NCBI GenBank assembly: GCA_964510165.1
Contig: CAZEBC010000008.1
Coordinates: forward strand, 1-47,965
Source: an uncultured bacterium
Lineage (GTDB): Bacteria > Abyssobacteria > SURF-5
Length of the DNA: 47,965 bases
Reading direction: 5' to 3'
Shown here: in pieces, positions 1 through 30,815 of the stretch
How the letters are laid out: every line of letters begins with the position of its first letter
How positions within the stretch are numbered: the stretch's first letter is position 1
Program-made: the position numbers and the translations under genes
The notes under the pieces: model-generated
The model's input: the letters and a program-made list of their open reading frames with translations, nothing else
The model's database searches: none
Told to the model about the DNA's origin: nothing

Positions 1-290
1 ACCAGTAGGGAATCCGGAGTGATGAATGATGAGTGATGAATATTAAGATCGGAAAAGTCGCCAATCATTGAACTTTGAACCGGGCCCGGAACCGCGAGTG
101 CACGCGAATGAACGCGAATATTGCGGAGCCGAAACGTTGGACGTTGGGCTAATGAGGGCAGCGAAGCGGGCGAACGCCACAGAGATAGGAACTACTTATA
201 TGCAATTCTAGCAACTATCATGAATGTGAATGTGTCGACCTGACCAAGACCTGACCGCTCATCTTTCGTGTAGTTCAAGGTTTGCCGCGC

Positions 291-319
291 TTGACTTCGC
301 GTTGGGTTTTGGGTAGAAT
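291..319 (+). promoter_or_regulatory. sigma70-type promoter of tRNA-Leu
   Basis: TTGACT (291-296), 17-bp spacer, TAGAAT (314-319); tRNA begins 15 nt later. Confidence 0.8.
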
Positions 320-333
320 TGGGGTGGACAAAC

Positions 334-417
334 GCGGAAGTGGTGGAATTGGCAGACGCGCTGGGTTCAGGGTCCAGTGGGAGTGATCCCGTGGGGGTTC
401 AAGTCCCCCCTTCCGCA
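334..417 (+). tRNA. tRNA-Leu (anticodon CAG)
   Basis: Acceptor stem GCGGAAG/CTTCCGC; D-arm TGGTGGAATTGGCAGAC; anticodon arm CTGGG-TTCAGGG-TCCAG (CAG at 368-370); long variable arm; T-arm GGGGG-TTCAAGT-CCCCC; discriminator A417 followed by CCG, so CCA is not encoded. Confidence 0.97.
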
Positions 418-424
418 CCGTGAG

Positions 425-463
425 GCCTTTCGGGTGGGTTTGCCCGAAAGGCTGTTGTGTTTT
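425..463 (+). terminator. probable intrinsic terminator after tRNA-Leu
   Basis: Stem GCCTTTCGGG (425-434) / CCCGAAAGGC (443-452) followed by T-rich TGTTGTGTTTT. Confidence 0.65.
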
Positions 464-644
464 GGGGAAGGCGAAAGGGATTTATCCACCACAATGGCAC
501 GGTGCGGCAGAGCCGCAGGTTTCGGGTTAAGGGCAACCATGACAGGAGGAATGACTGTAAGCTCTCAACCCGTAACTGGCTTCAGAGCAGATCGCGACGC
601 GGATTCAACAAATCAACGGTTAGCGATGCCGTAGATTGCGATCA

Positions 645-687
645 ACTTATTCGGGGACACCATGCGGCATGGTGTCCCCGAACAAGT
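645..687. repeat. 21-bp inverted repeat (palindromic, REP/MITE-like element)
   Basis: ACTTATTCGGGGACACCATGC-G-GCATGGTGTCCCCGAACAAGT; arms 645-665 and 667-687 pair with one mismatch. Confidence 0.8.
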
Positions 688-697
688 GGGGGAAATG

Positions 698-1469
698 ATG
701 GATCATCGGGAAGTCGGCAGGATATGGGATGAGAATGCGAAGTTGTGGACTCCGCTCGCGCGGGCGGGGTACGACATCTTCCGGGATCACGTGAACACGC
801 CGGCATTCCTTGATATGCTGTCCGATGTGAAGGGGCTGTTTGGGCTCGATATCGGCTGTGGAGAGGGGCACAACACCCGCCTGGTCGCCGAGCGCGGCGT
901 GAGGCTTGTCGCTCTCGACATATCGCGAGTGTTCCTCGGGCATGCGATCAAGATAGAGAAGAAGAGGCCCACGGGCATTCGGTACCTTCATGCGAGCGCG
1001 CCGGAACTGCCGTTTCGGAGTGAGAGCTTTGATTTCGCCGTGGTGACGATGAGCTTCATGGATGCGCCCGAGTACGAGCTCATCGTGAGCGAGGCATGGC
1101 GCGTGCTCAGGCCGGGCGGGTTCCTGCAGTTTTCGATCACGCATCCATGTTTTCAGACGCCCCACTGGAAGTGGGTTTGCGACGAGAGTGGGAAGAAGGT
1201 TGCTGTCGAATGCGGCGACTATTTCGATTCCCCGAAAAGATGAAGTCGAGGAATGGATTTTTCGGGATGCCGAGGATCAGGGGGAATTCAGGGTGCCGGC
1301 ATTCCGGCGCACTCTGAGCGGGTGGCTGAATCTGTTGCTCGCCACGGGCTTCGTGATCGAGCGCGTCTGCGAGCCTCGCGCTGACGAGGGGACGGCCAAG
1401 AAGTATCCCGTCTTGTCAGATGCGCGCATCATGGCGTTCTTTCTGGTCGTTCTCCTTCGCAAGGCGTAG
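698..1469 (+). pseudogene. class I SAM-dependent methyltransferase split by a +1 frameshift near 1230-1243 (pseudogene, sequencing error or programmed shift)
   Basis: N-terminal ORF has motif I LDIGCGEG, VALD, FDFAV and RVLRPGG, and ends GDYFDSPKR*. The overlapping frame (ORF 1188-1469) continues DEVEEWIF...FRRTLSGWLNLLLATGFVIERVCEP, a typical C-terminus for this family. Start 698 chosen from the GGGGG RBS; 662 lies inside the palindrome. Confidence 0.75.
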
Positions 1470-1539
1470 CGACGGCGGCGCATGGGAGCGGCGCGCAAGC
1501 GTGATCCTTCGGCCTTCCAGAAAAAAATCAAGAGGGGTA

Positions 1540-1596
1540 TTGACAGCTTTATATGTGTGTGGTATACTCCTAGCAATTCGATAGGAATACTAGGAG
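1540..1596 (+). promoter_or_regulatory. sigma70 promoter with overlapping inverted repeat (candidate Rrf2 operator)
   Basis: TTGACA (1540-1545), 17 bp, TG-n-TATACT (1563-1568). Inverted repeat TACTCCTA-N9-TAGGAATA (1565-1589) overlaps the -10/+1 region. Confidence 0.75.
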
Positions 1597-1665
1597 CATT
1601 GGCCCGAGCACCCTGGAGACAGAGAAGGTCAGTGGGCTTCTGTCATCCCATAGAGCGAAACAGTC

Positions 1666-1707
1666 CGTGTTGCGTGCTGCGTATTGCGTGTCTCGTGTTC
1701 CGGGTTG
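1666..1707. repeat. degenerate heptamer tandem repeat (6 units)
   Basis: CGTGTTG CGTGCTG CGTATTG CGTGTCT CGTGTTC CGGGTTG. Confidence 0.7.
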
Positions 1708-1805
1708 GGCGGATTGTGCGGGATGTTTTTGGAGAGACGCCGGATGATTGCACTCAGCGCTTCTGTATGTACAACCGATTCAGAATTAAGGAGTTGCATT
1801 AAGTC

Positions 1806-2240
1806 ATGAAACTTACGACCCGCGCACGATATGCGTTGCGCGCCATGATTCAGATTGCTCGCAACAGCGAAGAGGGCAAGCCGGTCAATCTGAGCGACAT
1901 CGCCGCGAAGACGCAGGTGTCGCGGCGATACCTGGAACAGTTGGTGATGCCTTTGAAGAGCGCGTCGCTGCTCAGGGGCATGAGCGGCAAGGACGGCGGC
2001 TATGTGCTCGCGAGGCCGGCCGACCAGATAAGAGTGGGCGAGATTGTGGAGGCGGCGATCGGTCCGATCAATATTGTGGACTGCGTGGAGAATCCGGAGT
2101 CGTGCATGAAGGCGGATTGGTGCGAGTGCCGTCCGCTGTATGTGATGTTGAATGACCGGATTACCGACGCGTTCAATGCGTTTACGCTGGCCGATCTGGC
2201 GGAAGACAGGGTGAAGAGGGACAAGGGGAAGCGGTGCTGA
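1806..2240 (+). CDS. Rrf2 family transcriptional regulator (IscR/CymR-like, Fe-S Cys motif)
   Basis: MKLTTRARYALRAM N-terminus, HTH SRRYLEQL, GKDGGYVLARPA wing, C-x5-C-x5-C-x-C (DCVENPESCMKADWCEC). Confidence 0.93.
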   Translation: MKLTTRARYALRAMIQIARNSEEGKPVNLSDIAAKTQVSRRYLEQLVMPLKSASLLRGMSGKDGGYVLARPADQIRVGEIVEAAIGPINIVDCVENPESCMKADWCECRPLYVMLNDRITDAFNAFTLADLAEDRVKRDKGKRC

Positions 2241-2243
2241 AGG

Positions 2244-2350
2244 GTCTCCAGTCTCTGGTCTCTGGTTTCGGGCTGAAAGAAAAGCAAAGGACAAGACGGA
2301 ACGGATTGATCCGCGGAGGTCATCGGGTTTCGAGTTTCGGGTTTTGGGAT
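2244..2350. repeat. two short heptamer tandem arrays in the intergenic spacer
   Basis: GTCTCCA GTCTCTG GTCTCTG GTTTCGG (2244-2271) and TCGGGTT TCGAGTT TCGGGTT TTGGGAT (2323-2350). Confidence 0.65.
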
Positions 2351-2376
2351 AGAGGCATTAACTCACGGAGGAGAAG

Positions 2377-2940
2377 ATGGAAGCGACAGTGGCCCCGACA
2401 GGCATGGCCTGTACGCCGATTGCGGTCAAGGTGGGCAAATCGGTGATACGGCTACGGCACGGCGACCTGACGGCGTTGCCGGTTGATGCGTTCGTGTTCT
2501 ATGCGCGTGAAGACCTCGAGCTTGGGTCGGGCTATGGGACGGCGATCCAGGTTCGCGGGGGAGCGTCCATCAAGAAGGAGCTTGAGAAGATCGGGCGCAT
2601 CAAGATGGGGGAGGCCGTTATCACCGGCGCGGGCAACATGAACGCGAGGCATATCATTCACGCATGCGGCCCGAAGTTCCAGGAAGCGGACATGGAGGAG
2701 AAGCTTCGGCAGTGCATGAAGTCGTCGCTCAGGGTTGCGGAGGAGGCCGGAATCAAGACGTTGGCGTATCCGCCGATGGGGGCTGGTTTTTACGGCGTGT
2801 CGCTCGAAATGGCGGCGAAGGTGATGCTTGATTGCATCAAATCGTTCCTCGAGCGGGGTTCATCGCTCGAGGAGGTGATTATCTGTGTGATTGACTATCG
2901 CGATTACGTTCCGTTCAAGAAGAAGATGGAAACCATGTGA
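2377..2940 (+). CDS. macrodomain (Appr-1-p/ADP-ribose-binding fold) protein with altered catalytic motifs
   Basis: HGDLT..VDA, GEAVITGAGNM..HIIHACGP and AYPPMGAGFYG are macrodomain hallmarks; GGAGGAG RBS. Confidence 0.9.
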   Translation: MEATVAPTGMACTPIAVKVGKSVIRLRHGDLTALPVDAFVFYAREDLELGSGYGTAIQVRGGASIKKELEKIGRIKMGEAVITGAGNMNARHIIHACGPKFQEADMEEKLRQCMKSSLRVAEEAGIKTLAYPPMGAGFYGVSLEMAAKVMLDCIKSFLERGSSLEEVIICVIDYRDYVPFKKKMETM

Positions 2941-3698
2941 AGAAGGGAGTGGGAACCGTGGGTGTGGAGACAACCAGTCCGTTGCTGCAGTTTGCCGAAG
3001 ACAAGCTTCAGATAATTGCGTTGACGTTCATGGCGGTGGTGTACCTTTTCAAGGTGAGGTGGATACTGAGCTTCAAGGCGGGCAAGGAGCGTCAGGCGCC
3101 GACGGGCAATCCGCGCACGACCGCGAAAAAGGGCGCCGTCTATTCATTGTTCAACATCTTCATGCCGTGGTCAATGCCGAGCACGCGGCAGCAGCCGTTC
3201 TTCTATTTGCAGTTCGGCATGTTTCACGTGGCGGTGGCGACTTCGATCACGATGTCGATCGTGATGCCGTATTTTCCCGATCTTATTGCGGGCGAGCGGG
3301 TGGTGCTGGGTTTGCAGACGTTGTTCGCGCTGGGCTGCCTGGTGGGGCTTGGGCGGTTCATTCGGCGTGTGGCCTCTCCGTATATTCGCGCCATCAGCAC
3401 GCCGGACGATTATTTTTCGGTGGCGCTGCTGACGGTGTGGCTGGCGTTCGCGTTCATGGCGGCGCCGAACAACCGGGCCGAGACCGAATTCTGGCTGCTC
3501 GGCTATTTCTTCCTGACCGCGTTCTTCCTGTTCTATGTTCCGTTCAGCAAGATTTCGCATTACATCTTCTACCCGTTCACGCGATGGTATCTGGGGAAGA
3601 CGCTCGGTCATCGTGGCGTCTATCCGTTGCCGTTCAACCCGAGTCATGAGCCGCTGTCGAAGCTGTTCGCGCGGGTTGAGCCGATCGAGGGAAAGTGA
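2937..3698 (+). CDS. NarI/DsrM/TmcC-like membrane subunit (cytochrome b family)
   Basis: About 5 hydrophobic segments; MFH, RAISTPDDY and YVPFSKISH align with DsrM of this window (AFH, RYISLPADY, YFPFSKLMH). Start is GTG 2937 (overlapping the macro stop) or GTG 2958 (GGGAG RBS). Confidence 0.85.
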   Translation: MKKGVGTVGVETTSPLLQFAEDKLQIIALTFMAVVYLFKVRWILSFKAGKERQAPTGNPRTTAKKGAVYSLFNIFMPWSMPSTRQQPFFYLQFGMFHVAVATSITMSIVMPYFPDLIAGERVVLGLQTLFALGCLVGLGRFIRRVASPYIRAISTPDDYFSVALLTVWLAFAFMAAPNNRAETEFWLLGYFFLTAFFLFYVPFSKISHYIFYPFTRWYLGKTLGHRGVYPLPFNPSHEPLSKLFARVEPIEGK

Positions 3699-3716
3699 TT
3701 TTATAGGGGTGAAGCG

Positions 3717-5432
3717 ATGGTTCAAACACGGTCATACAAATGCGAGAAGGTAATCGAGCGACTGCACAAGAAGGTGAATCGTCAGATATTGGCTTCACTT
3801 GAGGCGTGCGTGCATTGCGGGATGTGCACGAACCAGTGCCATTACGTGCTGACAAACCCCGGCGATGTCACCTATATGCCTTCGTACAAGGCGGACAAGT
3901 TGAGGAAATTTTTCAAAGCGCACATTGATTGGACCGGCAAGGCTTTTCCGTGGTGGGTGGGGGCACGCAGTTTCTATACCGACGAAGAGCTTGAGGAGTT
4001 GAAGGACACGGTGTTCGGCAAGTGCACCAATTGCCGGCGCTGCTCGGTGAATTGTCCGATGGGTGTTGACATGGCGACATTCAACCGTATGGCGCGGGGG
4101 CTGCTGGTGTCGGTGGGGATCATGCCGGAGGGAGTGTCGGTCGTTGCCAAGGACCAGTGGGAGATCGGCAACCAGATGGGCGTTCTCAAGGAGGATTACA
4201 TTGAGACGCTGCAATGGATGGAAGAGGAATTGCAGGGCGAACACAATGATCCAACCATCCGAATACCGATCGACAAGATGGACTGCGACGTCGTGTATTC
4301 GATCAACCCGCGCGAGGTGAAGTATGACCCGCGGACCATCGCTGACGCCGCGCTCATCTTTCATGTCGCGGGTGAGAACTGGACGATGGCCAGCGAAGGT
4401 TGGGACATGACGAATTTCGGATTGTTTAACGGTGACGATGAGCTTGGCGGGGCGGTCGCCAGGCGCTGTTATGAGGCGACTGAGAACCTTCGCGGAAAGA
4501 AACTGGTTATCTCCGAATGCGGTCATGGCTATCGTTCGACTCGGTGTGAGGGCCAGAACTGGGGGCAGAAAGACGTTCCGTTCAAGATGGAAAGTTCGGT
4601 CATCACGATGCTGCGCTACATCAAGGAGGGGCGCATCAAGGTAGACAAGACGAAAAACGCGGAGCCGGTGACGTTCCACGATTCCTGCAACAATGCGCGC
4701 AGTTGCGGGTTGACCGAGGAGCCGCGCGAGCTCCTGAAGCTTGTGTGCATGGATTTCCGCGAGATGTATCCGAACCGCGCCGAGAACTTCTGCTGTACGG
4801 GCGGGGGTGGCGCGATGTCTATGTCCGAGTACACGCCGAGGCGGCTCAAGTCGGCGAGAGTCAAAGCCGACCAGTTACGCGCCACCGGCGCGAAGATCGT
4901 GGTGACCTCTTGCCATAATTGCGTGGACGGGTTGAGCGACTTGATACGGCATTACGAATTGGGGATGAAAGTCACCCAGCTCGTGAACCTGGTTGCGAAC
5001 GCGCTGGTCTTGCCCGAGGCGAAGCCGGCGGCAGTGCCGCATCTGAGCGGTTACACCATTCTTGTGGCCGACGACGAACCTGACACGCTTGCCTTCTTCA
5101 GCACCGTGCTTGAGGACAACGGAGCGCGGGTCATAGTGGCGAAGGACGGAGAGGAGGCCCTGAAACTGGCCCGGTCCGAAAAGCCCGACCTTATCACGCT
5201 GGACATCTCGATGCCGGGAAGGGACGGGGGCGAGGTATTCGAGAGTTTGCGAAAGGACCCCGATCTCTGCACCACCAAGGTGTGTATCATTACGGGAAAA
5301 CCGGAATTGAGACGTTTGATCTATGACCGTCATGTGCCGCCTCCGGAAGGCTACCTGACAAAGCCGCTCGCGGATGAGGAGCTTGTGCTTAACGTGCGTA
5401 AGGTGCTCGAGGCGAGCCACGAAATGAACTGA
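3717..5432 (+). CDS. TmcB/HmcF/DsrK-like HdrD-family Fe-S/CCG protein fused to a C-terminal response-regulator receiver domain
   Basis: CVHCGMCTNQC and CTNCRRCSVNCP ferredoxin motifs; ECGH; CCG domain HDSC..FCCTGGGG..CHNC; from about nt 5052 a receiver domain (ILVADDEPD, DLITLDISMP, IITG, TKP). Confidence 0.9.
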   Translation: MVQTRSYKCEKVIERLHKKVNRQILASLEACVHCGMCTNQCHYVLTNPGDVTYMPSYKADKLRKFFKAHIDWTGKAFPWWVGARSFYTDEELEELKDTVFGKCTNCRRCSVNCPMGVDMATFNRMARGLLVSVGIMPEGVSVVAKDQWEIGNQMGVLKEDYIETLQWMEEELQGEHNDPTIRIPIDKMDCDVVYSINPREVKYDPRTIADAALIFHVAGENWTMASEGWDMTNFGLFNGDDELGGAVARRCYEATENLRGKKLVISECGHGYRSTRCEGQNWGQKDVPFKMESSVITMLRYIKEGRIKVDKTKNAEPVTFHDSCNNARSCGLTEEPRELLKLVCMDFREMYPNRAENFCCTGGGGAMSMSEYTPRRLKSARVKADQLRATGAKIVVTSCHNCVDGLSDLIRHYELGMKVTQLVNLVANALVLPEAKPAAVPHLSGYTILVADDEPDTLAFFSTVLEDNGARVIVAKDGEEALKLARSEKPDLITLDISMPGRDGGEVFESLRKDPDLCTTKVCIITGKPELRRLIYDRHVPPPEGYLTKPLADEELVLNVRKVLEASHEMN

Positions 5433-5513
5433 GCGGGGAAAAGGGAAAAGGCGAAAAACAGAGACGTCGGGGCGGGACACAAACTGCCCGGGACGAATCG
5501 GGGGACTGCCTTC

Positions 5514-6947
5514 ATGGAATTGCCCTATCAGCAATATTTCGAGGCGCTACCCTGTTATGTGACCGTCCAGGATCGGAATTTCAAAATCATTCAAGCCAAC
5601 CGGCGATTCCGCAGGGATTTCGGGGACTTCGAGGACCGTTATTGCTATCAGGTCTACAAGCATCGCTCAGAGAAATGCGAGGTGTGCCCGGTTGACCGAA
5701 CCTTCAGGGACGGGCAGTCTCACGGAAGCGAGGAGCAGGTGAAGTCACTCGACGGCAAGGACGTGTCGGTCATTGTGTATACGACCCCGATCCGCGACGA
5801 GACCGGCGAGATCACGTCCGTCCTGGAGATGTCGACCGACATCACCGAGATCAAGATCCTACAGAAGCAGCTCAAGGAAAGCCAGAGCCGTTACCGGCTG
5901 ATATTCGAAGAAGTGCCGTGCTACATTTCAATTCAGGACAAAGACTTGCGCATCGTGGAGGCGAATCGCCGGTTTAAGGAAGACTTCGGCGACATGTTGG
6001 GCTGTAAGTGTTACGAGGTCTATAAGCATCGCTCCGAGCAATGCTTCCCGTGTCCCGTTCAGGCCACGTTTCAGGACGGCAAGGTGCACCAGAGCGAAGA
6101 AGTGGTCGCCTCCAAGGACGGCGAACCGGTGAACGTGCTTGTGTATACGGCGCCCATTCGGGACGCGGGCGGCGAGATCAGAAGCGTGATGGAGATGAGC
6201 ACAAACATCACACAGATACGCGAACTTCAGTCGCAGCTCACCTCGCTCGGACTGCTTATCGGCTCAATTTCTCACGGAATCAAGGGACTTCTCAACAGCC
6301 TTGACGGCGGCATCTATCTCGTCAATACGGGCCTCGACAAGAACAGGCCGGCACGTGTTACGCAGGGATGGGAGATGGTCCAGCGAAATATCTCACGCAT
6401 CCGGAGCATGGTCCTGGATATCTTGTACTATGCGAAGGACCGTGAGCCGGAATATGAGAGAATCCCCGCCTTGGCCATGATTGAAGAAGTTTGCGGGATG
6501 ATGGAAACCAAGGCCGGGGAGCGAGGGATCGAATTGCGGAGGGAATTCGACCGTGAAGCGGGGAGCTTCGAGGGCGATGCCAAGGCCATCCGCTCGATGT
6601 TGGTCAACTTGTTTGAGAATGCCCTGGACGCATGCAGAGTGGATGACAAGAAGGACTCACACCAAGTCTTTGTGGCGATGGCGGGGAACTCCGATCACAT
6701 AGAATTCGAAATACGCGATAATGGCATCGGCATGGACCGAGAGACCAGGGAAAAAGCCTTCAGCCTTTTCTTCTCCTCAAAAGGGGTGGGAGGCACCGGG
6801 CTGGGCCTGTTCATCGCCAACAAGATCGCACTCGCCCATGGGGGCAAAATCCGGCTTGAATCCGAAATCAATCAGGGTACCCGTTGCCTGGTGAAAATCC
6901 CGAGGGTACGACCGAGAGAGCAACCCGAGGAGTCCTACGCCCTCTGA
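5514..6947 (+). CDS. cytoplasmic sensor histidine kinase with two tandem Cys-rich PAS domains
   Basis: Two similar repeats of about 120 aa, each with CYxxYKHRSExCxxCP; H-box SISHGIKG; N-box NLFENALDA; DNGIGM, FFSSK, GTGLGL. Confidence 0.92.
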   Translation: MELPYQQYFEALPCYVTVQDRNFKIIQANRRFRRDFGDFEDRYCYQVYKHRSEKCEVCPVDRTFRDGQSHGSEEQVKSLDGKDVSVIVYTTPIRDETGEITSVLEMSTDITEIKILQKQLKESQSRYRLIFEEVPCYISIQDKDLRIVEANRRFKEDFGDMLGCKCYEVYKHRSEQCFPCPVQATFQDGKVHQSEEVVASKDGEPVNVLVYTAPIRDAGGEIRSVMEMSTNITQIRELQSQLTSLGLLIGSISHGIKGLLNSLDGGIYLVNTGLDKNRPARVTQGWEMVQRNISRIRSMVLDILYYAKDREPEYERIPALAMIEEVCGMMETKAGERGIELRREFDREAGSFEGDAKAIRSMLVNLFENALDACRVDDKKDSHQVFVAMAGNSDHIEFEIRDNGIGMDRETREKAFSLFFSSKGVGGTGLGLFIANKIALAHGGKIRLESEINQGTRCLVKIPRVRPREQPEESYAL

Positions 6948-7348
6948 TGGCAAGCAACAAGAGAAGAATCCTGACAATTGACGATGAGCCTGATGAGCGC
7001 ATCTATCTTGCCGCCCTGCTCGAGGACAACGGCTTCACAGCTGATACCGCCAAGGACGGAAACGAGGCCCTTGAGAAAGCGCGAGCCAGTCCTCCCGACC
7101 TGATAACACTTGACATCACGATGCCGGAGAAGTCAGGCGTAACTTTCTATCAAGAAATACGAAAAGACCCGAAACTGGGCAAGATACCCATCATAATCGT
7201 GACGGGTGTTACCGGATTGGACGGAGATCCGGAAGAATTTCGTCAATTTATATCTACACGAAAAGATACTCCTCCTCCGGAAGGTTTTGTAACCAAGCCC
7301 GTAGACCAAGAAAAGTTTCTCGAGAAGGTCGCCGAGCTTCTGAGGTAA
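6947..7348 (+). CDS. single-domain response regulator (DivK/CheY-like receiver)
   Basis: ILTIDDEPD, DLITLDITMP, IVTG, TKP; ATG overlaps the kinase stop (TGATG). Confidence 0.92.
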   Translation: MASNKRRILTIDDEPDERIYLAALLEDNGFTADTAKDGNEALEKARASPPDLITLDITMPEKSGVTFYQEIRKDPKLGKIPIIIVTGVTGLDGDPEEFRQFISTRKDTPPPEGFVTKPVDQEKFLEKVAELLR

Positions 7349-7427
7349 GACTCTCGGGATTTCACCTTCTCGGACTCCTGTTGGAGTGGTGCTCCGCCTC
7401 AGCGTTGCTGTCCAAGTCACGTCCCCT

Positions 7428-7631
7428 TGCAAAATTTGCATAGTAACAAGTCGAACTTGACTGAATTATGCAAATATTTCATACCTCCCGAAGTGACGTT
7501 TTGATTTCGGCGCTGGTTATTGCTCCCCCTGTCTCCACTTTTTTAGAACTTAACCAATTTGTTGTCAAGAGTTTAGACCTGTCGCCCTTCTGCCCGACAT
7601 CCTGGCTTGGGATAATGGCATGGTAGTTGCT
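7428..7631 (+). promoter_or_regulatory. sigma54 (-24/-12) promoter upstream of dsrA with candidate IHF site and upstream palindromes
   Basis: TGGCATGGTAGTTGCT (7616-7631) fits TGGCAYG-N4-TTGCW with GG-N10-GC spacing. AACCAATTTGTTG (7552-7564) is one mismatch from IHF WATCAANNNNTTR. Palindromes TGCAAA-A-TTTGCA (7428-7440) and ATTTGCATA...TATGCAAAT (7434-7475). Confidence 0.7.
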
Positions 7632-7828
7632 TTTTCTGGAATATTGTGGAAGTAGGTTTCCCTCCATCCAACCCCTGATGCCAAAAGCTGTTAGAAATGT
7701 AAATGGACGAAGAGTGGAGGGAACAAAAACCGGAGGTCACCCCTTGAAGGCAGCACCCTCCGGCAGACCGAGTTAGAGGCGGCATCATTCAGAGGCTCGA
7801 AGGATAAGTAAAAGGACAGGAGAGAGTT

Positions 7829-9055
7829 ATGGCAGAGAAGGGCACACCGATGTTGGACGAGTTGGAGAAGGGTCCGTGGCCGAGCTTTGTGACGGAGATA
7901 AAGCGAGCGGGCAAGAAGAAGAAGGCGTGCATGGACCTTTTGCACCAGCTTGAGAAGTCGTACCGTGACCGTATTGGGTACTGGAAGCACGGGGGTATCG
8001 TTGGGGTGACGGGATACGGCGGGGGTGTGATTGGTCGGTACTCGATGTTTCCGGACGAGTATCCCGACATAGCGCATTTTCACACGATCCGAGTGAACAT
8101 GCCGTCGGGGTGGTTTTACACGTCGAAGGCGCTTCGGGCGGTGTGCGACATATGGGACGCGCACGGGAGCGGGTTGACGAACATGCACGGATCGACAGGG
8201 GACATCATATTATTGGGCACGACGACGGACCAGTTACAGCCGTGTTTTGACAATTTATCTGAGGCGGGTTTTGACCTTGGCGGCTCGGGTTCCGCGCTTC
8301 GTACGCCGAGCGCGTGCGTGGGACCCGCGCGGTGCGAGTGGTCGTGTTATGACACGCTTGATGCATGCCACACGATCACGATGGAGTTTCAGGACGAGCT
8401 ACATCGTCCGCCGTGGCCTTACAAGTTCAAGATGAAGTTCAGCGGGTGTCCGAACGACTGTGTGGCGTCGATTGCGCGGTCGGACCTGTCGGTGATCGGG
8501 ACGTGGCGGGACGCGATGCAGGTGGACAACGGCGCGGTGCGGGAGTATGCGGAGAAGGGGTTGGACATCCAGAAAGAGGTAGCGTCGTTGTGTCCGACGC
8601 GGGCGGTGGATTACGATTCGGGCACCAAGCAGCTTCGGATCATCAATGAGGACTGCGTGCGGTGCATGCACTGCATCAACGTGATGCCGAAGGCGTTGAG
8701 GCCTGGGAAGGAGCGGGGAGCGACGATTCTGGTAGGCGGGAAGGCGCCGATCCTGGAGGGTGCGATGCTGTCGTCGGTGATGATCCCGTTCATGAAGATG
8801 GAGCATCCGTACGATGAGCTAGTGGAGCTTGCGCGGAAGATACATGACTGGTGGGATGAGAACGCGAAGTTTCGTGAGCGAGTAGGTGAGTTGATCAAGC
8901 GAGTGGGGATTCGGACGTTCATCAAGGAGATGGGGCTTCCTGCGGTGCCACAGATGGTGAGTGCGCCGAGGGCGAACCCGTACTATTTCTGGTGGCCGGA
9001 AGAGGTGACGGACAGGGAAGGCAAGCCATTGATGCAGAAGAAGGAAGAGGTGTGA
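7829..9055 (+). CDS. dsrA: dissimilatory sulfite reductase alpha subunit (copy 1)
   Basis: [35 protein letters not shown], siroheme/Fe-S motifs CVGPARC and GCPNDC, ferredoxin CVRCMHCIN. Confidence 0.98.
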
Positions 9056-9057
9056 AG

Positions 9058-10116
9058 ATGGGGAGAACGGATATAGGACCGCCGCTGTATAAGGACATGC
9101 TTCCGCCGGTGATCACGAAGAACTATGGGAAGTGGAAGTATCACGAGATATTGAAGCCTGGGGTATTGGTGCACGTAGGAGAGAGCGGGGACAAGCTGTA
9201 CACGGTTCGGCTGGGTTCACCGAGGTTGGTGAGCACGGACTACATACGAGACCTGGCGGAGTTGGCGGACAAGTACTGCGACGGGTATTTGCGGTTCACG
9301 AGCCGTCACAACGTGGAGTTTTTGTTGACGGACGCGGGGAAGATCGAGGCGTTGATTGCGGACGCGAAGAAGCTTGGGTTGACGCCGGGGGGTACTGGCG
9401 CGTCGATCACGAGCATCGTGCACACGCAGGGGTGGATACACTGTCACACGCCGGCGACGGACGCCTCGGGGATCGTGAAGGCGGTGATGGACGATCTGTT
9501 TGAGTATTTTGGGAGCCACAAGCTGCCAGCGCAGGTGCGAATTGCGCTGGCGTGCTGTTTGAACATGTGCGGAGCGGTGCACTGTTCGGACATTGCGATA
9601 TTGGGGATACACCGGTTGCCGCCGAAGGTGGACCATGAGCGGTTGGGCAAGATATGCGAGGTACCCTCGACAGTGTCGGCGTGTCCGACGGGCGCGATTC
9701 GTCTGGACGCGAAGAAGAAGAGCGTGCAGGTGATCGAAGAGAAGTGCATGTACTGCGGGAACTGTTACACGATGTGTCCGGCGATGCCTTTGATGGACCC
9801 GGACGGAGACGGGGTATCGATCTGGGTAGGCGGGAAGGTGTCGAACGCGCGTCATGCGCCGATGTTCTCGCGGTTGGCGATTCCGTATTTGCCGAACAAT
9901 CCGCCGAGGTGGCCGGAGGTGGTGAAGGCGGTTCGGAACATTGTGGAGGTGTACGCGAGCAACGCGCGCAAGCACGAGCGAGTGGGAGAGTGGATCGAGC
10001 GAGTGGGCTGGGAGCGGTTCTTCAAGCTGACGGGAATCCCGTTCACGGACAAGCACATAGACGACTTCACGCTTGCGCAGGACACGTTCCGTACGACGCC
10101 GATGTTCAAGTGGTGA
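9058..10116 (+). CDS. dsrB: dissimilatory sulfite reductase beta subunit (copy 1)
   Basis: [60 protein letters not shown] 9058 two nt after the dsrA stop. Confidence 0.98.
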
Positions 10117-10118
10117 GT

Positions 10119-10168
10119 GCAGGGGCGGCTCTTGTGGCCGCCCGTAGGGGCGATTTTCGTGATCGCCC
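10119..10168 (+). repeat. tandem pair of REP-like 25-nt palindromes between dsrB and dsrD
   Basis: GCAG-GGGCGGC-N7-GCCGCCC then GTAG-GGGCGAT-N7-ATCGCCC; duplicated at 24407-24456. Confidence 0.7.
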
Positions 10169-10192
10169 GCAAGGAAAGAAGGCGAGAGGCCG

Positions 10193-10438
10193 ATGGACGA
10201 GGTGACGAGGAACGGAGTACTAGAGTTCATCAAGAAGAAGGCGGAGCGAGGGAAGGGCCTGAACAGTTATCGAGACATAACGAAGGGCTGTCCCGAGCTT
10301 GACCGCAAGGCGATAAAGAAGGCGGTGCAGGAGTTAATAGCGGAGGGCGTGCTTGACTACTGGTCGAGCGGCAGCACCACCTACATCCGCCTGGCCGGCT
10401 ATGAGCCCGGCTCTGGCGAAACCCCACCCGAAGAATAG
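10193..10438 (+). CDS. dsrD: DsrD (copy 1)
   Basis: 81-aa basic winged-helix-like protein with YWSSGSTT, directly after dsrB. Confidence 0.93.
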   Translation: MDEVTRNGVLEFIKKKAERGKGLNSYRDITKGCPELDRKAIKKAVQELIAEGVLDYWSSGSTTYIRLAGYEPGSGETPPEE

Positions 10439-10624
10439 GCCTGATGAGGAGAGATTTCGGCTGGATACGAGCCCGAAGGGCTTGAAGGAGGTGGCCGAAC
10501 GAAATCAGCGTGAGGGCAATCACGGTGGAGTGAGAAGAAGCGGGCCTGCCGGGAGCACGGACTGCCCGCGCAATCGAAGAGAGATTTAGTCGCATCTTGG
10601 AGAGCGAAAGGAGGTAGGTAAATA

Positions 10625-20365: not shown

Positions 20366-22072
20366 GTGTCTGAAACAGCCCAAAGAATAGTGGTGATAGG
20401 CGGTGTGGCCTGCGGGCCAAAGGCGGCCGCGCGCGCGCGGCGTCGTGACCCGAGCGCCAGAATCACCATCATCGAGCGCGGCCCCTTTCTGTCATACGCC
20501 GGCTGCGGCTTGCCGTATTATATAGGTGGGTCAGTGCCTCAATGCGACGACTTGCGCAAGACTCAATACGGCGTGGTCCGGGACGAAGATTTCTTCTGGA
20601 ATGTCAAGGAGATCGAAGCGCGCACTCGCACTGCGGTAGAGTCGATCAACCGAGACCGAAAGACTGTCACCATCAGAAGTCTCGAAACAAATGCGACCGA
20701 CGAAATCCCTTACGATAAACTGGTGCTGGCCACCGGAGCTTCACCCGCCAAACCGCCCATCGAGGGCTTGTCCCTGGAGCGCGTGTTCTTCGTTCATGTG
20801 CCGCATGACGCTCAACTCATGCGAGAACTGATTGAAGGCGGCGAGGTGGATAAAGCCGTCTTCATAGGCGCCGGACGCGTCTCGCTCGAGGTGGCCGAAT
20901 CGCTCTTCGCGCATGCGGTGGATGCGGCGATCGTCGAAATGGAAGGGTCCATCCTCCCTGCGATGCTCGATCCCGAAATAGCTGCGGTGGTTGCGGGCGC
21001 GCTTCGCGAAGATAACATCGAAGTATTCCTTTCGGAAAAGGTTCTGCGAATCGAAGGCGATGAGGAAGGACGAGCGTGCAAGGTCATTACCGAAGCGCGC
21101 GAAATACCGACCGACATCGTCGTGGTGGCGACGGGTGTGAAGCCTAATGTGGAACTCGCAGTTGCGGCAGGATTGGCTATTGGGGAAGCTGGCGCCATTG
21201 CGGTCAATGATCGGCTGCAAACGAGCGACCCGGACATCTATGCCGGAGGCGACTGCGTTGAGTGCACGAGCCTCGTGACAGGAAAGAAAATATACGCGCC
21301 GCTCGGCTCCACTGCAAATCGCCATGGCCGCGTAATCGGCGACAACGTTACCGGAGGCGATTCCACATTTCCAGGCGTCGTAGGCACATGCGCTATGAAG
21401 AGTATGGGAATGAACATCGCCGGCACCGGCATTACGGAGCGGCAGGCCAGGGCGCTTGGCTATTCTGTCCTCACAAGCATCGTGTCGTCGATGGATCGGG
21501 CTCATTATTATCCGGGCGCCAAGTTTATTCTGGTCAAGATGGTGGCCGACGCCAAGGATGGCCGACTCCTTGGAGCACAGGTGGTCGGGCCCGGCGATGT
21601 TACGAAGCGAATTGACGTGCTGGCCACGGCGCTTACAAGCCGGGCCGATATAGATCAGATTGCGAATCTGGACCTCAGTTACGCGCCGCCGTATTCCACC
21701 GCGCTCGATGCCGTGACGCACGCGGCAAACGTCCTTAGAAACAAGCGTGACGGTATGGCGGAAGCGCTTGGGCCGGCCGAAGTGCGCGCGAGGATGGACC
21801 GCAATGATGAGTTTGTTCTTTTGGATGTTCGCGAGATGACTGAAGTCGAGAAAGCGAAGTTCGAAGACAGACGGGTTTGCGCGATCCCGCTCAGCCGACT
21901 GCGCTCCTCGGCAAGCGAAGTCCCGAACGCAAAGGAGCTTATTTGCCTGTGTCAAATGGGCATGAGAAGTTATGAGGCCTGTCTAACGCTCAAGGGAATG
22001 GGCTTCGAAAATGTGAAGTTTCTTGAGGGCGGCTTGAGATTCTGGTCCGACGCAGGTTACTCCGACACCTGA
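20366..22072 (+). CDS. CoA-disulfide/persulfide reductase-like flavoprotein with C-terminal rhodanese domain (Npsr-like)
   Basis: IGGVACG FAD motif, [10 protein letters not shown] redox Cys, ATG, GD, YAPPYS, rhodanese [17 protein letters not shown]. Confidence 0.9.
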
Positions 22073-22116
22073 GCGGACCGGTAGTCTTGTGGGGTTGGCA
22101 ACTTAAGGAGAGAGTT

Positions 22117-23343
22117 ATGGCAGAGAAGGGCACACCGATGTTGGACGAGTTGGAGAAGGGTCCGTGGCCGAGCTTTGTGACGGAGATAAAGCGAGCGGGC
22201 AAGAAGAAGAAGGCGTGCATGGACCTTTTGCACCAGCTTGAGAAGTCGTACCGTGACCGTATTGGGTACTGGAAGCACGGGGGTATCGTTGGGGTGACGG
22301 GATACGGCGGGGGTGTGATTGGTCGGTACTCGATGTTTCCGGACGAGTATCCCGACATAGCGCATTTTCACACGATCCGAGTGAACATGCCGTCGGGGTG
22401 GTTTTACACGTCGAAGGCGCTTCGGGCGGTGTGCGACATATGGGACGCGCACGGGAGCGGGTTGACGAACATGCACGGATCGACAGGGGACATCATATTA
22501 TTGGGCACGACGACGGACCAGTTACAGCCGTGTTTTGACAATTTATCTGAGGCGGGTTTTGACCTTGGCGGCTCGGGTTCCGCGCTTCGTACGCCGAGCG
22601 CGTGCGTGGGACCCGCGCGGTGCGAGTGGTCGTGTTATGACACGCTTGATGCATGCCACACGATCACGATGGAGTTTCAGGACGAGCTACATCGTCCGCC
22701 GTGGCCTTACAAGTTCAAGATGAAGTTCAGCGGGTGTCCGAACGACTGTGTGGCGTCGATTGCGCGGTCGGACCTGTCGGTGATCGGGACGTGGCGGGAC
22801 GCGATGCAGGTGGACAACGGCGCGGTGCGGGAGTATGCGGAGAAGGGGTTGGACATCCAGAAAGAGGTAGCGTCGTTGTGTCCGACGCGGGCGGTGGATT
22901 ACGATTCGGGCACCAAGCAGCTTCGGATCATCAATGAGGACTGCGTGCGGTGCATGCACTGCATCAACGTGATGCCGAAGGCGTTGAGGCCTGGGAAGGA
23001 GCGGGGAGCGACGATTCTGGTAGGCGGGAAGGCGCCGATCCTGGAGGGTGCGATGCTGTCGTCGGTGATGATCCCGTTCATGAAGATGGAGCATCCGTAC
23101 GATGAGCTAGTGGAGCTTGCGCGGAAGATACATGACTGGTGGGATGAGAACGCGAAGTTTCGTGAGCGAGTAGGTGAGTTGATCAAGCGAGTGGGGATTC
23201 GGACGTTCATCAAGGAGATGGGGCTTCCTGCGGTGCCACAGATGGTGAGTGCGCCGAGGGCGAACCCGTACTATTTCTGGTGGCCGGAAGAGGTGACGGA
23301 CAGGGAAGGCAAGCCATTGATGCAGAAGAAGGAAGAGGTGTGA
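22117..23343 (+). CDS. dsrA: dissimilatory sulfite reductase alpha subunit (copy 2)
   Basis: Same translation as 7829-9055; ATG 22117 behind the AGGAG RBS. Confidence 0.97.
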
Positions 23344-23345
23344 AG

Positions 23346-24404
23346 ATGGGGAGAACGGATATAGGACCGCCGCTGTATAAGGACATGCTTCCGCCGGTGA
23401 TCACGAAGAACTATGGGAAGTGGAAGTATCACGAGATATTGAAGCCTGGGGTATTGGTGCACGTAGGAGAGAGCGGGGACAAGCTGTACACGGTTCGGCT
23501 GGGTTCACCGAGGTTGGTGAGCACGGACTACATACGAGACCTGGCGGAGTTGGCGGACAAGTACTGCGACGGGTATTTGCGGTTCACGAGCCGTCACAAC
23601 GTGGAGTTTTTGTTGACGGACGCGGGGAAGATCGAGGCGTTGATTGCGGACGCGAAGAAGCTTGGGTTGACGCCGGGGGGTACTGGCGCGTCGATCACGA
23701 GCATCGTGCACACGCAGGGGTGGATACACTGTCACACGCCGGCGACGGACGCCTCGGGGATCGTGAAGGCGGTGATGGACGATCTGTTTGAGTATTTTGG
23801 GAGCCACAAGCTGCCAGCGCAGGTGCGAATTGCGCTGGCGTGCTGTTTGAACATGTGCGGAGCGGTGCACTGTTCGGACATTGCGATATTGGGGATACAC
23901 CGGTTGCCGCCGAAGGTGGACCATGAGCGGTTGGGCAAGATATGCGAGGTACCCTCGACAGTGTCGGCGTGTCCGACGGGCGCGATTCGTCTGGACGCGA
24001 AGAAGAAGAGCGTGCAGGTGATCGAAGAGAAGTGCATGTACTGCGGGAACTGTTACACGATGTGTCCGGCGATGCCTTTGATGGACCCGGACGGAGACGG
24101 GGTATCGATCTGGGTAGGCGGGAAGGTGTCGAACGCGCGTCATGCGCCGATGTTCTCGCGGTTGGCGATTCCGTATTTGCCGAACAATCCGCCGAGGTGG
24201 CCGGAGGTGGTGAAGGCGGTTCGGAACATTGTGGAGGTGTACGCGAGCAACGCGCGCAAGCACGAGCGAGTGGGAGAGTGGATCGAGCGAGTGGGCTGGG
24301 AGCGGTTCTTCAAGCTGACGGGAATCCCGTTCACGGACAAGCACATAGACGACTTCACGCTTGCGCAGGACACGTTCCGTACGACGCCGATGTTCAAGTG
24401 GTGA
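23346..24404 (+). CDS. dsrB: dissimilatory sulfite reductase beta subunit (copy 2)
   Basis: Same translation as 9058-10116. Confidence 0.97.
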
Positions 24405-24480
24405 GTGCAGGGGCGGCTCTTGTGGCCGCCCGTAGGGGCGATTTTCGTGATCGCCCGCAAGGAAAGAAGGCGAGAGGCCG

Positions 24481-24726
24481 ATGGACGAGGTGACGAGGAA
24501 CGGAGTACTAGAGTTCATCAAGAAGAAGGCGGAGCGAGGGAAGGGCCTGAACAGTTATCGAGACATAACGAAGGGCTGTCCCGAGCTTGACCGCAAGGCG
24601 ATAAAGAAGGCGGTGCAGGAGTTAATAGCGGAGGGCGTGCTTGACTACTGGTCGAGCGGCAGCACCACCTACATCCGCCTGGCCGGCTATGAGCCCGGCT
24701 CTGGCGAAACCCCACCCGAAGAATAG
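24481..24726 (+). CDS. dsrD: DsrD (copy 2)
   Basis: Same translation as 10193-10438. Confidence 0.93.
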   Translation: MDEVTRNGVLEFIKKKAERGKGLNSYRDITKGCPELDRKAIKKAVQELIAEGVLDYWSSGSTTYIRLAGYEPGSGETPPEE

Positions 24727-24748
24727 GATGGGAAGCAAGCAGGAAGCC

Positions 24749-29189: not shown

Positions 29190-30815
29190 ATGTCGGAATT
29201 CGATCACGTTCCGAAACCGGAAACACTGGCGAAGGTTGACTTCAAGCCCTCGCGCAACAGGTGGATGGAAACACCCGTTGATTTCAAGAAGGGCACATTC
29301 TGCTACAGTGCGAAGTCCAAGTTCATGGAGTACCTCAACCTTCCTAACCCCAGGGAGTGGTCTCCAAGCGATCCGGACTGGAAACTGCCCCCGAATTGGA
29401 AGGAAATCATCCTCGAGGGTTTCAAAGACAGGCTTTCGAGGTTCCGTTCCTTGCGAGTATTCATGGATATTTGCGTCAGGTGCGGGGCTTGCGCTGATAA
29501 GTGTCACTTCTTTATAGGCTCAGGCGATCCCAAGAACATGCCCGTGTTAAGGGCTGAACTGCTGAGATCGGTGTACCGCAACGATTTCACGACCGCGGGC
29601 AAGATACTCGGGAAAGTCGCTGGCGCTCGCGAACTCACACTTGATGTGTTGAAGGAATGGTACTACTATTTCTACCAGTGCACCGAATGCAGGCGCTGCT
29701 CGGTGTTTTGTCCCTATGGCGTTGACACCGCCGAGATCACCATGCTGGCCCGGGAACTGCTCAACTTGGTTGGTCTAAACATCGGTTGGACCGTTGAACC
29801 ATGCGCGAACTGCTTCAGGACCGGTAACCATCTCGGCATACAGCCCCATGGTTTTGTGGACAGCATCCAATTCGCCGCCGATGAACTCGAGGAAATCACC
29901 GGCATCAAGATTGATGTGCCGATAAACAAAAAGGGCGCCGAAATCCTCTTCATTACTCCGTCCGCCGATTATTTCGCGTCGCCCCATTACTATACTCTCC
30001 TCGGATATCTTGCGCTGTTCCACGAGATCGGGCTTGATTACACGTGGAGCACGTTTGCCTCGGAAGGCGGTAATTTTGGGCTTTTCACGTCACATGAGAT
30101 GATCAAGCGACTGAACGCAAAGATGTATGCCGAGGCCAAACGGCTTGGCGTCAGGTGGATTCTTGGCGGCGAGTGCGGTCACATGTGGCGTGTAGTTCAT
30201 CAGTATATGGATACGATGAACGGACCCGCCTATTTCCTTGAGGAGCCGGTCTCGCCTATAACCGGGACCAGATTCGAGAACGCAAAATCCACGAAAATGG
30301 TTCACATAACCGAGTTCACGGCCGACCTCATCAGGCATAACAAGTTGAAGCTTGATCCAAGCCGGAATGACCATTGGCGGGCCACGTTCCACGATTCCTG
30401 CAATCCCGCAAGGGCGTTGGGGCTCTTCGAGGAACCTCGCTACATCATCAGGCATACGTGCAAGAACTTCTTCGAGATGCCGGACAATACCATCAGGGAA
30501 CAGACGTTCTGCTGTGGAAGCGGCGCGGGCCTCGGCAACGACGAGAACCTCGAGATGAGGTTGCGTGGGGGCCTACCAAGGGCCAACGCCGTCAACTATG
30601 TGAAAGAAAAGCATGGAGTAAACATACTCCTTTGCATGTGCGCCATTGACAAAGCCACGCTGCCGACTCTTATGGAATACTGGGTTCCAGGGATGGAGGT
30701 CGGCGGCGTGCATGAACTTGTCGCCAATGCCCTGATAATGACAGGCGAAAGAGAGCGAACAACTGACGTGAGAGGTACGCCCTTCAAGCCGGAGGAGGAT
30801 GACCAGGATGTATGA
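29190..30815 (+). CDS. dsrK: DsrK Fe-S/CCG subunit
   Basis: CVRCGACADKCH, KNMPVLRAELLR, CTECRRCSVFCP, GGECGHMWR, HDSCNPAR, FCCGSGAG, CAIDK. Confidence 0.97.
   Translation: MSEFDHVPKPETLAKVDFKPSRNRWMETPVDFKKGTFCYSAKSKFMEYLNLPNPREWSPSDPDWKLPPNWKEIILEGFKDRLSRFRSLRVFMDICVRCGACADKCHFFIGSGDPKNMPVLRAELLRSVYRNDFTTAGKILGKVAGARELTLDVLKEWYYYFYQCTECRRCSVFCPYGVDTAEITMLARELLNLVGLNIGWTVEPCANCFRTGNHLGIQPHGFVDSIQFAADELEEITGIKIDVPINKKGAEILFITPSADYFASPHYYTLLGYLALFHEIGLDYTWSTFASEGGNFGLFTSHEMIKRLNAKMYAEAKRLGVRWILGGECGHMWRVVHQYMDTMNGPAYFLEEPVSPITGTRFENAKSTKMVHITEFTADLIRHNKLKLDPSRNDHWRATFHDSCNPARALGLFEEPRYIIRHTCKNFFEMPDNTIREQTFCCGSGAGLGNDENLEMRLRGGLPRANAVNYVKEKHGVNILLCMCAIDKATLPTLMEYWVPGMEVGGVHELVANALIMTGERERTTDVRGTPFKPEEDDQDV

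Follow-up and report, generated by a model that had tools for sequence, protein, structure and literature searches.

An HmcF/TmcB-Like Iron–Sulfur Subunit Fused to a Receiver Domain in a Gene Cassette of dsrAB-Bearing Bacteria

Introduction

DsrMKJOP is a menadiol:DsrC-trisulfide oxidoreductase in which electrons pass from the hemes of DsrM to the noncubane cluster of DsrK and from there to DsrC, and a single CCG motif together with the cysteine of a T/GECGH sequence is common to DsrK, HmcF, and TmcB (PMC10861901). In the hmc system, HmcE is a NarI-related cytochrome b and HmcF is a cytoplasmic Fe–S protein of the GlpC superfamily, and the operon is accompanied by rrf1 and rrf2, which regulate its expression (bioRxiv 10.1101/2023.11.02.564894); Rrf1 is a CheY-like single receiver (bioRxiv 10.64898/2026.06.30.735679). 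Here we describe a gene whose product joins a subunit of the DsrK/HmcF/TmcB type to a response regulator receiver in one polypeptide. It lies at positions 3717–5432 (plus strand, as do all features of its cassette and the adjoining dsrABD genes given below) of a 47,965-nucleotide (nt) stretch of DNA from an uncultured bacterium of the Abyssobacteria (SURF-5; assembly GCA_964510165.1, contig CAZEBC010000008.1), hereafter called the window. We found that the fusion is genuine, widespread, and uncharacterized.

Results

One Open Frame for an Fe–S/CCG Subunit and a Receiver

A preliminary description of the window, made from its letters alone, had proposed that one open frame links an Fe–S/CCG enzyme to a receiver. 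Such a protein of 571 residues (P0001) is indeed encoded at this position, on the evidence of the open reading frame (ORF), Pfam, the alignment of homologues, contigs of other assemblies, and an AlphaFold2 (AF2) model. The core carries two ferredoxin-type 4Fe–4S motifs (C31/34/37/41 and C103/106/109/113; 3798–4067; Pfam Fer4_8, residues 28–117), C268 in the sequence SECGH (codon 4518–4520), which corresponds to the cysteine of T/GECGH in DsrK, HmcF, and TmcB, and a single CCG domain (4668–4922; PF02754, residues 318–402) whose C324, C359, C360, C399, and C402 are predicted to form a noncubane 4Fe–4S site. It terminates in C399-H-N-C402, as the preliminary description had pointed out, and the DsrK of the window (29190–30815) has GECGH at 328 and CAID at 484. 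A Pro/Ala-rich linker containing the expected PEAKPAAVP (5010–5054; alignment columns about 443–475) leads to the receiver (5058–5396; PF00072, E 2.6e-19), in which the phospho-acceptor D496 is encoded by 5202–5204.

The functional residues of both parts were conserved. In an alignment of 30 family members picked from the 120 homologues listed, all Fe–S and CCG cysteines and C268 were invariant (30/30), and so were D452, D453, D496 (in LDISMP), T526, and K549 of the receiver, the residues that had been described as retained. In a wider alignment of 64 sequences, C324, C359, C360, and C399 were invariant, C402 was at least 90% conserved, and the 4Fe–4S cysteines were invariant or at least 90% conserved. 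The Response_reg match (residues 448–560) reached 69.8 bits against a gathering cutoff of 30.2, and with its acidic pair, phospho-Asp, Thr, and Lys the domain belongs to PF00072; judged by these residues, it looks phospho-competent. The linker was poorly conserved in the 30-member alignment, with about 14 residues here and up to about 40 in other members, and its block at residues 431–440 had a mean predicted local distance difference test score (pLDDT) of 69 in the AF2 model.

We considered whether the fusion might be an assembly or sequencing artifact or a decaying gene. The source is a draft genome of 325 contigs, and the two domains are broken apart in 2 of 80 related loci, by a run of N in L002 and by a frameshift, in a long-read assembly, in L023. 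On the other side, the junction, which had been singled out for checking, is spanned without reported inserted or deleted letters by contigs of four runs from three studies (covering 5003–5435, 4618–5084, 5017–5275, and 4154–7400; the first run may be the source sample). These are contigs and not raw reads, so that they speak for agreement between independent assemblies and not for per-read depth. None of the runs listed for the stretch was an RNA run. Core and receiver share one frame in 73 of the 80 loci, both domains occur in all 120 homologues listed, and the functional residues are invariant in the 30-member alignment. The artifact explanation is thus already contradicted, and we give it practically no chance.

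Distribution of the Architecture

PF00072 and the Fe–S/CCG domains occurred together in all of the 120 best homologues listed (72–100% identity). A scan with one genome per species yielded at least 443 relatives among 599 candidate stretches. Locus counts rest on the best 80 of these at least 443 relatives, and counts of gene order take the loci with room as their denominator. The single frame was recognized by script in 70 loci and by eye in three (L032, L054, and L067). Apart from the two broken loci mentioned above, the contig ended before the receiver in L034, a stop was followed by 150 nt up to the contig end in L006, and a clean stop with the receiver absent was found in L027 and L045. 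According to their records, the loci, all of them from metagenome-assembled genomes (MAGs), belong to Gemmatimonadota, Acidobacteriota, Planctomycetota, Zixibacteria, Ignavibacteria, Calditrichaeota, Fibrobacteraceae, Kofleriaceae, Thermodesulfobacteriota, and Candidatus Abyssobacteria, the last being the closest named locus among the best 80 (87%). Within the window's own phylum, 6 of 11 genomes, the source genome included, had an orthologue. In a protein library clustered at 50% identity, P0122 (52%) was the sole other full-length fused representative, and all representatives at most 44% identical to the fused protein were without the receiver.

Family proteins are automatically annotated as 'response regulator'. 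The architecture had already been seen by an annotator, because GenBank CAJ31188.1 (UniRef Q3IBN9) is named 'Reductase, iron-sulfur binding subunit containing response regulator receiver'. Given this record and the at least 443 relatives, the architecture is not rare, only uncharacterized. Mussmann et al. 2005 may, we presume, be the source of the record. The preliminary description knew of no characterized protein of this kind, and this part of it stood, since our literature searches found neither a published study nor a characterized protein with the same architecture; in genomes the architecture turned out to be common and already named. The main text of PMC6018805 contained no 'response regulator', hmc, or tmc, and that of PMC6338057 no 'response regulator' or hmc.

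Relationship of the Core to Curated Families

The core belongs to the broad DsrK/HmcF/TmcB class, with two 4Fe–4S motifs, a single five-Cys CCG motif, and the ECGH cysteine (S replacing the T/G of (T/G)ECGH). It is not HdrD proper, which has two CCG motifs: Pfam gave one CCG, at residues 318–402, and in the alignment only C268 and C277 remained of an N-terminal one. That it could simply be HmcF, TmcB, or DsrK was rejected, as it missed all three NCBIfam cutoffs (HmcF, NF045711, 344.5 bits against 750; TmcB, NF045724, 320.3 against 735; DsrK, NF045796, 250.7 against 400) and as the genome owns a separate TmcB-like gene and a DsrK. For comparison, the true HmcF representative P0149 scored 926.6 on the HmcF model. 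The hmcABCDEF context was likewise absent: positions 1–7400 held no genes for cytochrome c, HmcB, HmcC, or HmcD, and an HmcE-like gene only. For the receivers, the nearest curated family was the DVU0259 'DivK' type (NF045717, cutoff 160 bits), on which the fused receiver scored 69.9, the free receiver of the cassette 91.2, and a receiver beside a DsrK-like paralogue in the same genome 115.1; none reached membership.

A quick maximum-likelihood tree of 43 rows, with Shimodaira–Hasegawa-like approximate likelihood ratio (SH-aLRT) support only, placed in one 100% clade two divergent fused proteins (L087, 56%, and P0122), a receiver-less clade (about 62%), and a main fused clade of 14 rows, in which L027 and L045 were nested. 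The sister of this 100% clade was the pair L088 and P0128; HmcF and TmcB formed a separate 99% clade, and DsrK fell outside.

An AF2 run on a 64-row alignment reached a pLDDT of 93.8 and a predicted template modeling score (pTM) of 0.82; it replaced a run with 30 close homologues only (pLDDT 68.7). The best solved fold for the core was EtfD of M. smegmatis (9ojn; Foldseek E 1.4e-17, TMq 0.57), followed by LutA, and 9ojn was also the only nonreceiver among the 60 PDB sequence matches listed (phmmer 1.4e-12). The receiver fold matched many receivers (TMt about 0.9). A predicted complex of core (residues 1–434) and receiver (444–571) scored 0.16 against a mark of 0.32, in a calculation without controls, and speaks neither for nor against docking of the receiver.

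Split and Receiver-Less Relatives

We write HmcE' and HmcF' for the HmcE-like and HmcF-like products. In L088 (45–47%), HmcE' and HmcF' (465 aa, ending in a stop) are followed after a gap of 69 nt by a 142-aa receiver, a Cys-PAS kinase, a second receiver, and a sigma-54 activator. In L084–L086 (about 62%), the row runs sigma-54 activator, HmcE', HmcF' (478 aa, without receiver), two unrelated ORFs, a 131-aa receiver, and a one-PAS kinase. These split and receiver-less relatives fall around the fused clade in the tree. Because the split relatives keep a separate receiver nearby, gene order and tree argue that the partnership of receiver and enzyme is older than the fusion and outlasts fission, and split relatives plus fusion would together make up the classical gene-fusion argument for physical interaction. 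The receiver-less loci L027 and L045, nested within the main clade, are by their position best read as secondary losses. The nearest receiver-less full-length representative, P0128 (44%; a cluster representative without a locus), has a DsrC-like domain (PF04358, 57.7 bits) at the C-terminal position taken by the receiver in the fused proteins, which hints that this end of the protein may face DsrC.

We also observed that the Cys motif of the cassette kinase's PAS domains recurs in sigma-54 activators near the split relatives (L084, 2548–3930; L088, 1626–3068 and 8775–10121). In receiver-less L045 (Thermoguttaceae), the place of the kinase after HmcF' (about 9300–10300) is occupied by what appears by eye to be a LutC/YkgG-type protein.

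The Cassette

The cassette genes were located by tblastn of the window proteins against the 80 loci. Their order is macro-domain protein, HmcE-like cytochrome b, fused HmcF-like subunit and receiver, Cys-rich double-PAS kinase, and often a free receiver. The fusion and the free receiver had been recognized in the preliminary description; the macro domain, the HmcE-like anchor, the Cys-rich PAS kinase, and the parallel to hmcEF-rrf1-rrf2 had been missed.

The membrane cytochrome b anchor (2937–3698) is HmcE/TmcC/DsrM-like, with matches to the HmcE (5.3e-16) and TmcC (1.9e-9) models that both lie below cutoff, and its gene was present in all 77 loci with room (median identity 55%). Only two histidines, H97 and H208, were invariant (71/71 rows), so the anchor probably carries one heme b; they align with histidines in the TmcC and DsrM encoded by the same genome, both of which contain additional histidines. 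The core, as the query locus, had the highest median identity among the cassette genes (79%), and the fused receiver reached 63%.

Downstream lies a soluble PAS–PAS histidine kinase with a Cys cluster in each PAS domain (5514–6947; PAS_4 twice, HATPase_c). It was found in 65 of the 67 loci with room (median identity 62%), and by this genetic linkage it is a candidate cognate kinase of the receiver. The two kinase-less loci were L027 and L045, that is, the two receiver-less ones, in which macro gene, anchor, and core are retained. C44, C55, C58, C136, C166, C177, C180, and H254 were kept in 64/64 rows, and C14, kept in 54/64, adds to the first-PAS set of C44/C55/C58. This conservation suggests that the PAS cysteine sets hold a metal or Fe–S cofactor; we take them to resemble Fe–S-binding PAS sensors such as NreB. 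The kinase is without a membrane domain, and Pfam gave PAS and ATPase domains only.

The start of the free single-domain receiver (6947–7348) overlaps the stop of the kinase. It is a paralogue of the fused receiver, as had been proposed (44% identity, 55/125, E 5e-33), and both share DDEPD, LEDNG, AKDG, PDLITLDI, RKDP, and PPPEG..TKP. It followed the kinase in 43 of 62 loci with room (median identity 48%). Since the gene is thus optional, missing in 19/62 loci, the general role as a phosphate sink that had been suggested for it is not required.

Upstream, the macro-domain gene (2377–2940; PF01661, E 1.4e-26) was present in all 73 main-clade loci with room (median identity 49%), and tblastn gave no match for it in the deeper relatives L084–L088. 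Its product might bind ADP-ribose or remove ADP-ribosyl groups. An Rrf2-family regulator (1806–2240; PF02082, E 1.3e-32) is a variable companion, upstream in 12 of 68 loci with room (median identity 55%). Macro and anchor genes overlap by 4 nt, and anchor and core are 18 nt apart. Ahead of rrf2, a sigma-70-like promoter (1540–1568; TTGACA-17-TATACT, TG extended) fits the consensus at 11 of 12 positions; it is a match of sequence only, 4 such sites being present in the region where 3.3 are expected. No sigma-54 motif was found ahead of the cassette (1400–3717) at up to one mismatch. The window's only exact -24/-12 motif of this type, TGGCAT-N5-TTGCT, lies at 7616–7631, about 200 nt upstream of the first dsrA; the scan is weak, as 30 of 100 shuffles yield as many matches at one mismatch.

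Association with dsr Genes

Dissimilatory sulfite reductase genes (dsrA, dsrB, and dsrD, 7829–10438) adjoin the cassette, and the window continues with sat, aprBA, qmoABC, a second dsrABD, dsrN, dsrT, and dsrMKJOP. We searched DsrA in 40 cassette genomes, all MAGs, taken from 40 of the 80 loci: it was full-length in 31 and fragmentary in 1, 3 had weak or terminal fragments only, and 5 had none. In an even sample of 151 genomes from the phylum of genome G012, which was itself chosen through the cassette, 5 genomes had the cassette and 6 had DsrA (both 4, cassette only 1, DsrA only 2, neither 144). DsrA was thus present in 4/5 cassette genomes versus 2/146 cassette-free ones, or 3/4 versus 2/146 without G012, all counts from related and hence nonindependent genomes. 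Among 201 Desulfobacterota (the phylum of genome G003; match threshold E <= 1e-120), 101 had DsrA and 21 a match, of which 9 were fused, 1 was split as in L088, 5 were of the receiver-less type at about 62%, and 6 were relatives at 43–47%. The cassette tracks dsrAB genomes.

The genome contains further modules of this kind. The window's DsrMKJOP has a DsrK of 739.2 bits and a DsrM of 563.8 bits. On another contig (L082), a TmcABCD-like cluster has TmcC and TmcD above their cutoffs and a TmcB-like protein at 700.5 bits against 735. Also outside the window's contig (L081), we observed a DsrK-like paralogue (5407–7011; 357.6 bits, below the DsrK cutoff) with a DVU0259-like single receiver gene (7070–7489) 58 nt downstream. 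The same pair was found in seven further genomes of the sample from the window's own phylum, and it adjoins the cassette in L004, L008, L030, and L071.

Three other features of the sulfur gene island deserve mention. First of all, 7818–10439 and 22106–24727 form an exact duplication of 2,622 bp, which sets in 11 nt ahead of the dsrA start, takes in dsrA, dsrB, and dsrD, and ends shortly after the stop of dsrD. The first copy stands behind the cassette and the second ahead of dsrN, with unrelated flanks (224 mismatches in the next 300 nt). In G036, the closest named relative, the ends of two contigs fall inside the first 27 codons of dsrA, which is what one would expect of a repeat that breaks the assembly there too. 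The duplication could be a real gene conversion or an assembly effect. Second, just downstream of dsrMKJOP and a HAMP kinase (34219–35748) lies another receiver fusion (35763–36548), to a GcvH-like domain (PF00072 and PF01597) in which the usual lipoyl-lysine position is, by eye, not a lysine. Third, a pyridine-nucleotide disulfide oxidoreductase with a C-terminal rhodanese domain is encoded directly upstream of the second dsrA (20366–22072); we take it to be of the CoA-disulfide or persulfide reductase type.

Discussion

A Proposed Redox Module with a Receiver of Its Own

Our preferred reading, held tentatively and with a chance that we put a little short of even, is that the cassette encodes a quinol-linked thiol/trisulfide reductase module of the DsrC type, with the phosphorylation of a tethered receiver as its gate. 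A one-heme HmcE-like cytochrome b and an HmcF/TmcB-like cytoplasmic Fe–S/CCG subunit would form a small membrane redox module, and, in organisms with DsrAB, this module would, in a DsrMK-like way, carry electrons between the quinone pool and the disulfide or trisulfide of a protein, for which DsrC is the most likely candidate. We read HmcE'F' as such a reductase because the core has the one-CCG and ECGH-Cys features of DsrK, HmcF, and TmcB. The catalytic subunit would bear its own receiver on a tether. In the soluble kinase, the four conserved cysteines of each PAS domain probably bind a metal or Fe–S cofactor that would read the redox state of the cytoplasm; the kinase would then phosphorylate D496, and the receiver would shift its position on the catalytic, DsrC-facing C-terminal side, switching electron flow on or off post-translationally. 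Where present, the free receiver may be a second acceptor of the same kinase. The fusion itself, the conserved residues, the gene order, the joint loss of receiver and kinase, the split relatives, and the tie to dsrAB genomes are observed, and we count them in favor of this reading, together with the high conservation of the core and its match to the EtfD fold. Substrate, quinone coupling, phosphorylation partners, and gating are what we infer here, and so is direct phospho-regulation of the enzyme, which the preliminary description had likewise proposed.

Several observations weigh against this reading. With only two conserved histidines, the anchor probably binds one heme, unlike the diheme DsrM (PMC10861901). 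The genome already holds DsrMKJOP, TmcABCD, and a further DsrK-like module; there may be no need of a fourth reductase. In P0128, the DsrC-like domain is without a cysteine, which reduces it to a hint, and P0128 is a single cluster representative. The receiver-fused form was carried by only 8 of the 101 Desulfobacterota genomes with DsrA (9 fused genomes in total), and the cassette is therefore an accessory of a minority of dsrAB organisms, outside the core pathway; moreover, as related genomes are not independent, the tables of cassette and DsrA overstate the link between them. Conserved catalytic cysteines, finally, cannot separate an enzyme from a sensor, because redox sensing would need them too.

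The last point bears on the main alternative, that the redox module is itself the sensor. HmcE'F' would sense how far the quinone pool or DsrC is reduced, the fused receiver would, much like DivK, either take up phosphate as a redox-dependent sink or modulate the kinase, and output would run through the free receiver or through other orphan receivers, for example the one beside the DsrK-like paralogue. It fits this that both receivers of the cassette are without an output domain, that their nearest curated family is the DVU0259 'DivK' type, and that a DsrK-like gene with a similar downstream receiver recurs in L081, in seven further genomes, and near the cassette in several loci. Three other HdrD-like modules of the genome could serve bulk electron flow, and the single predicted heme of the anchor agrees with a sensor as well. 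But no free receiver follows the kinase in 19 of 62 loci, and L027 and L045 have lost receiver and kinase yet keep macro gene, anchor, and core, so that the redox module has a function of its own. The core is also conserved more strongly than the signaling parts. Joint loss of receiver and kinase with retention of the module, and this difference in conservation, each favor an enzyme with an add-on switch, and neither is decisive. We consider the sensor rather unlikely, though to be taken seriously.

The receiver may also be a tether or assembly device without direct effect on catalysis, which brings the soluble kinase to the membrane complex or governs how HmcF' attaches to the anchor or the macro-domain protein. 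A flexible linker, variable in length and poorly conserved, would suit such a device, as would a kinase with no membrane segment of its own and a macro gene that is the constant companion of the main clade (73/73). A passive tether has no need, however, of five phospho-chemistry residues that are invariant in 30/30 members, and the split relatives work with an untethered receiver. This explanation seems to us quite improbable.

Returning to the gated reductase, its boldest form would place the receiver beside the noncubane cluster as a phospho-controlled lid on the DsrC-docking face, so that the kinase acts on respiration and not on transcription. We regard the lid as possible, with our doubts outweighing our belief in it.

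What the Switch Would Mean

To our knowledge, what is known of how dissimilatory sulfate and sulfite reduction are controlled concerns mainly gene expression. If our preferred reading is right, a phospho-switch in a DsrK/HmcF-type subunit would show post-translational regulation of electron flow to DsrC, and it would offer a handle on the purpose of the many 'extra' HdrD-like modules in sulfur-cycling bacteria. In Acidobacteriota, Gemmatimonadota, Planctomycetota, Zixibacteria, Ignavibacteria, and others, the cassette is a marker of lineages with dsrAB whose physiology (reduction, oxidation, or disproportionation) is debated. Were the lid to hold, bacteria in more than ten phyla would have a rapid valve for the final electron transfer of dissimilatory sulfite reduction, receiver domains would gain a new class of output, the sulfur cycle a so far unknown layer of control, and orphan receivers beside DsrK-like paralogues would work likewise in trans. 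The gating hypothesis is directly testable with recombinant proteins.

Comparison with Known Systems

The cassette is a variation on two known themes, HdrD-like membrane modules and receivers that have an enzyme as their partner. On the side of the receiver, the response regulators CheB, PleD, and RpfG have enzymatic outputs, and the receiver controls an enzyme in the same polypeptide. In these proteins the receiver is N-terminal and the outputs belong to signaling or modification, whereas here it is C-terminal on a respiratory-type Fe–S subunit bound to a membrane cytochrome; literature searches found no described case of a receiver in this position on a redox subunit of that kind. On the side of the enzyme, the best solved relative of the core in structure and sequence, EtfD of M. 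smegmatis (9ojn), is likewise a membrane-linked HdrD-like Fe–S reductase, but it is fused to its own membrane domain, serves another pathway, has no receiver, and is 20% identical.

DsrMK resembles the cassette in its domain plan, its membrane b-cytochrome partner, and its association with dsrAB genomes, and it gives the likely chemistry (PMC10861901). The differences are that the DsrK of the window ends in CAID, where the core has CHNC, that DsrK has no receiver, and that DsrM is a diheme protein, with only two conserved histidines in the anchor here. TmcB–TmcC of the TmcABCD complex is similar in the single CCG motif, the CxxC ending, the T/GECGH-type cysteine, and the cytochrome b partner, and TmcB, unlike the cassette core, is without a receiver. 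In D. vulgaris, we take tmc to lie beside the signaling genes DVU0258–0260, a placement on which our literature searches found nothing.

Among described systems, the hmc operon of Desulfovibrio (Nitratidesulfovibrio) vulgaris Hildenborough comes nearest to the cassette; in it, rrf1 presumably stands directly after hmcF. As in hmc, genes for Rrf2, an HmcE-like and an HmcF-like protein, and a receiver follow one another in a row in the window. Unlike in hmc, genes for HmcA–D are not adjacent, the core forms a clade apart from HmcF and TmcB with the receiver covalently fused to it, the cassette includes a Cys-rich PAS kinase of its own as well as a macro-domain gene, and Rrf2 accompanies it in only 12 of 68 loci. 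By this comparison, the cassette looks like a minimal HmcEF with an Rrf1-type receiver fused on, equipped with a kinase and a macro-domain protein of its own.

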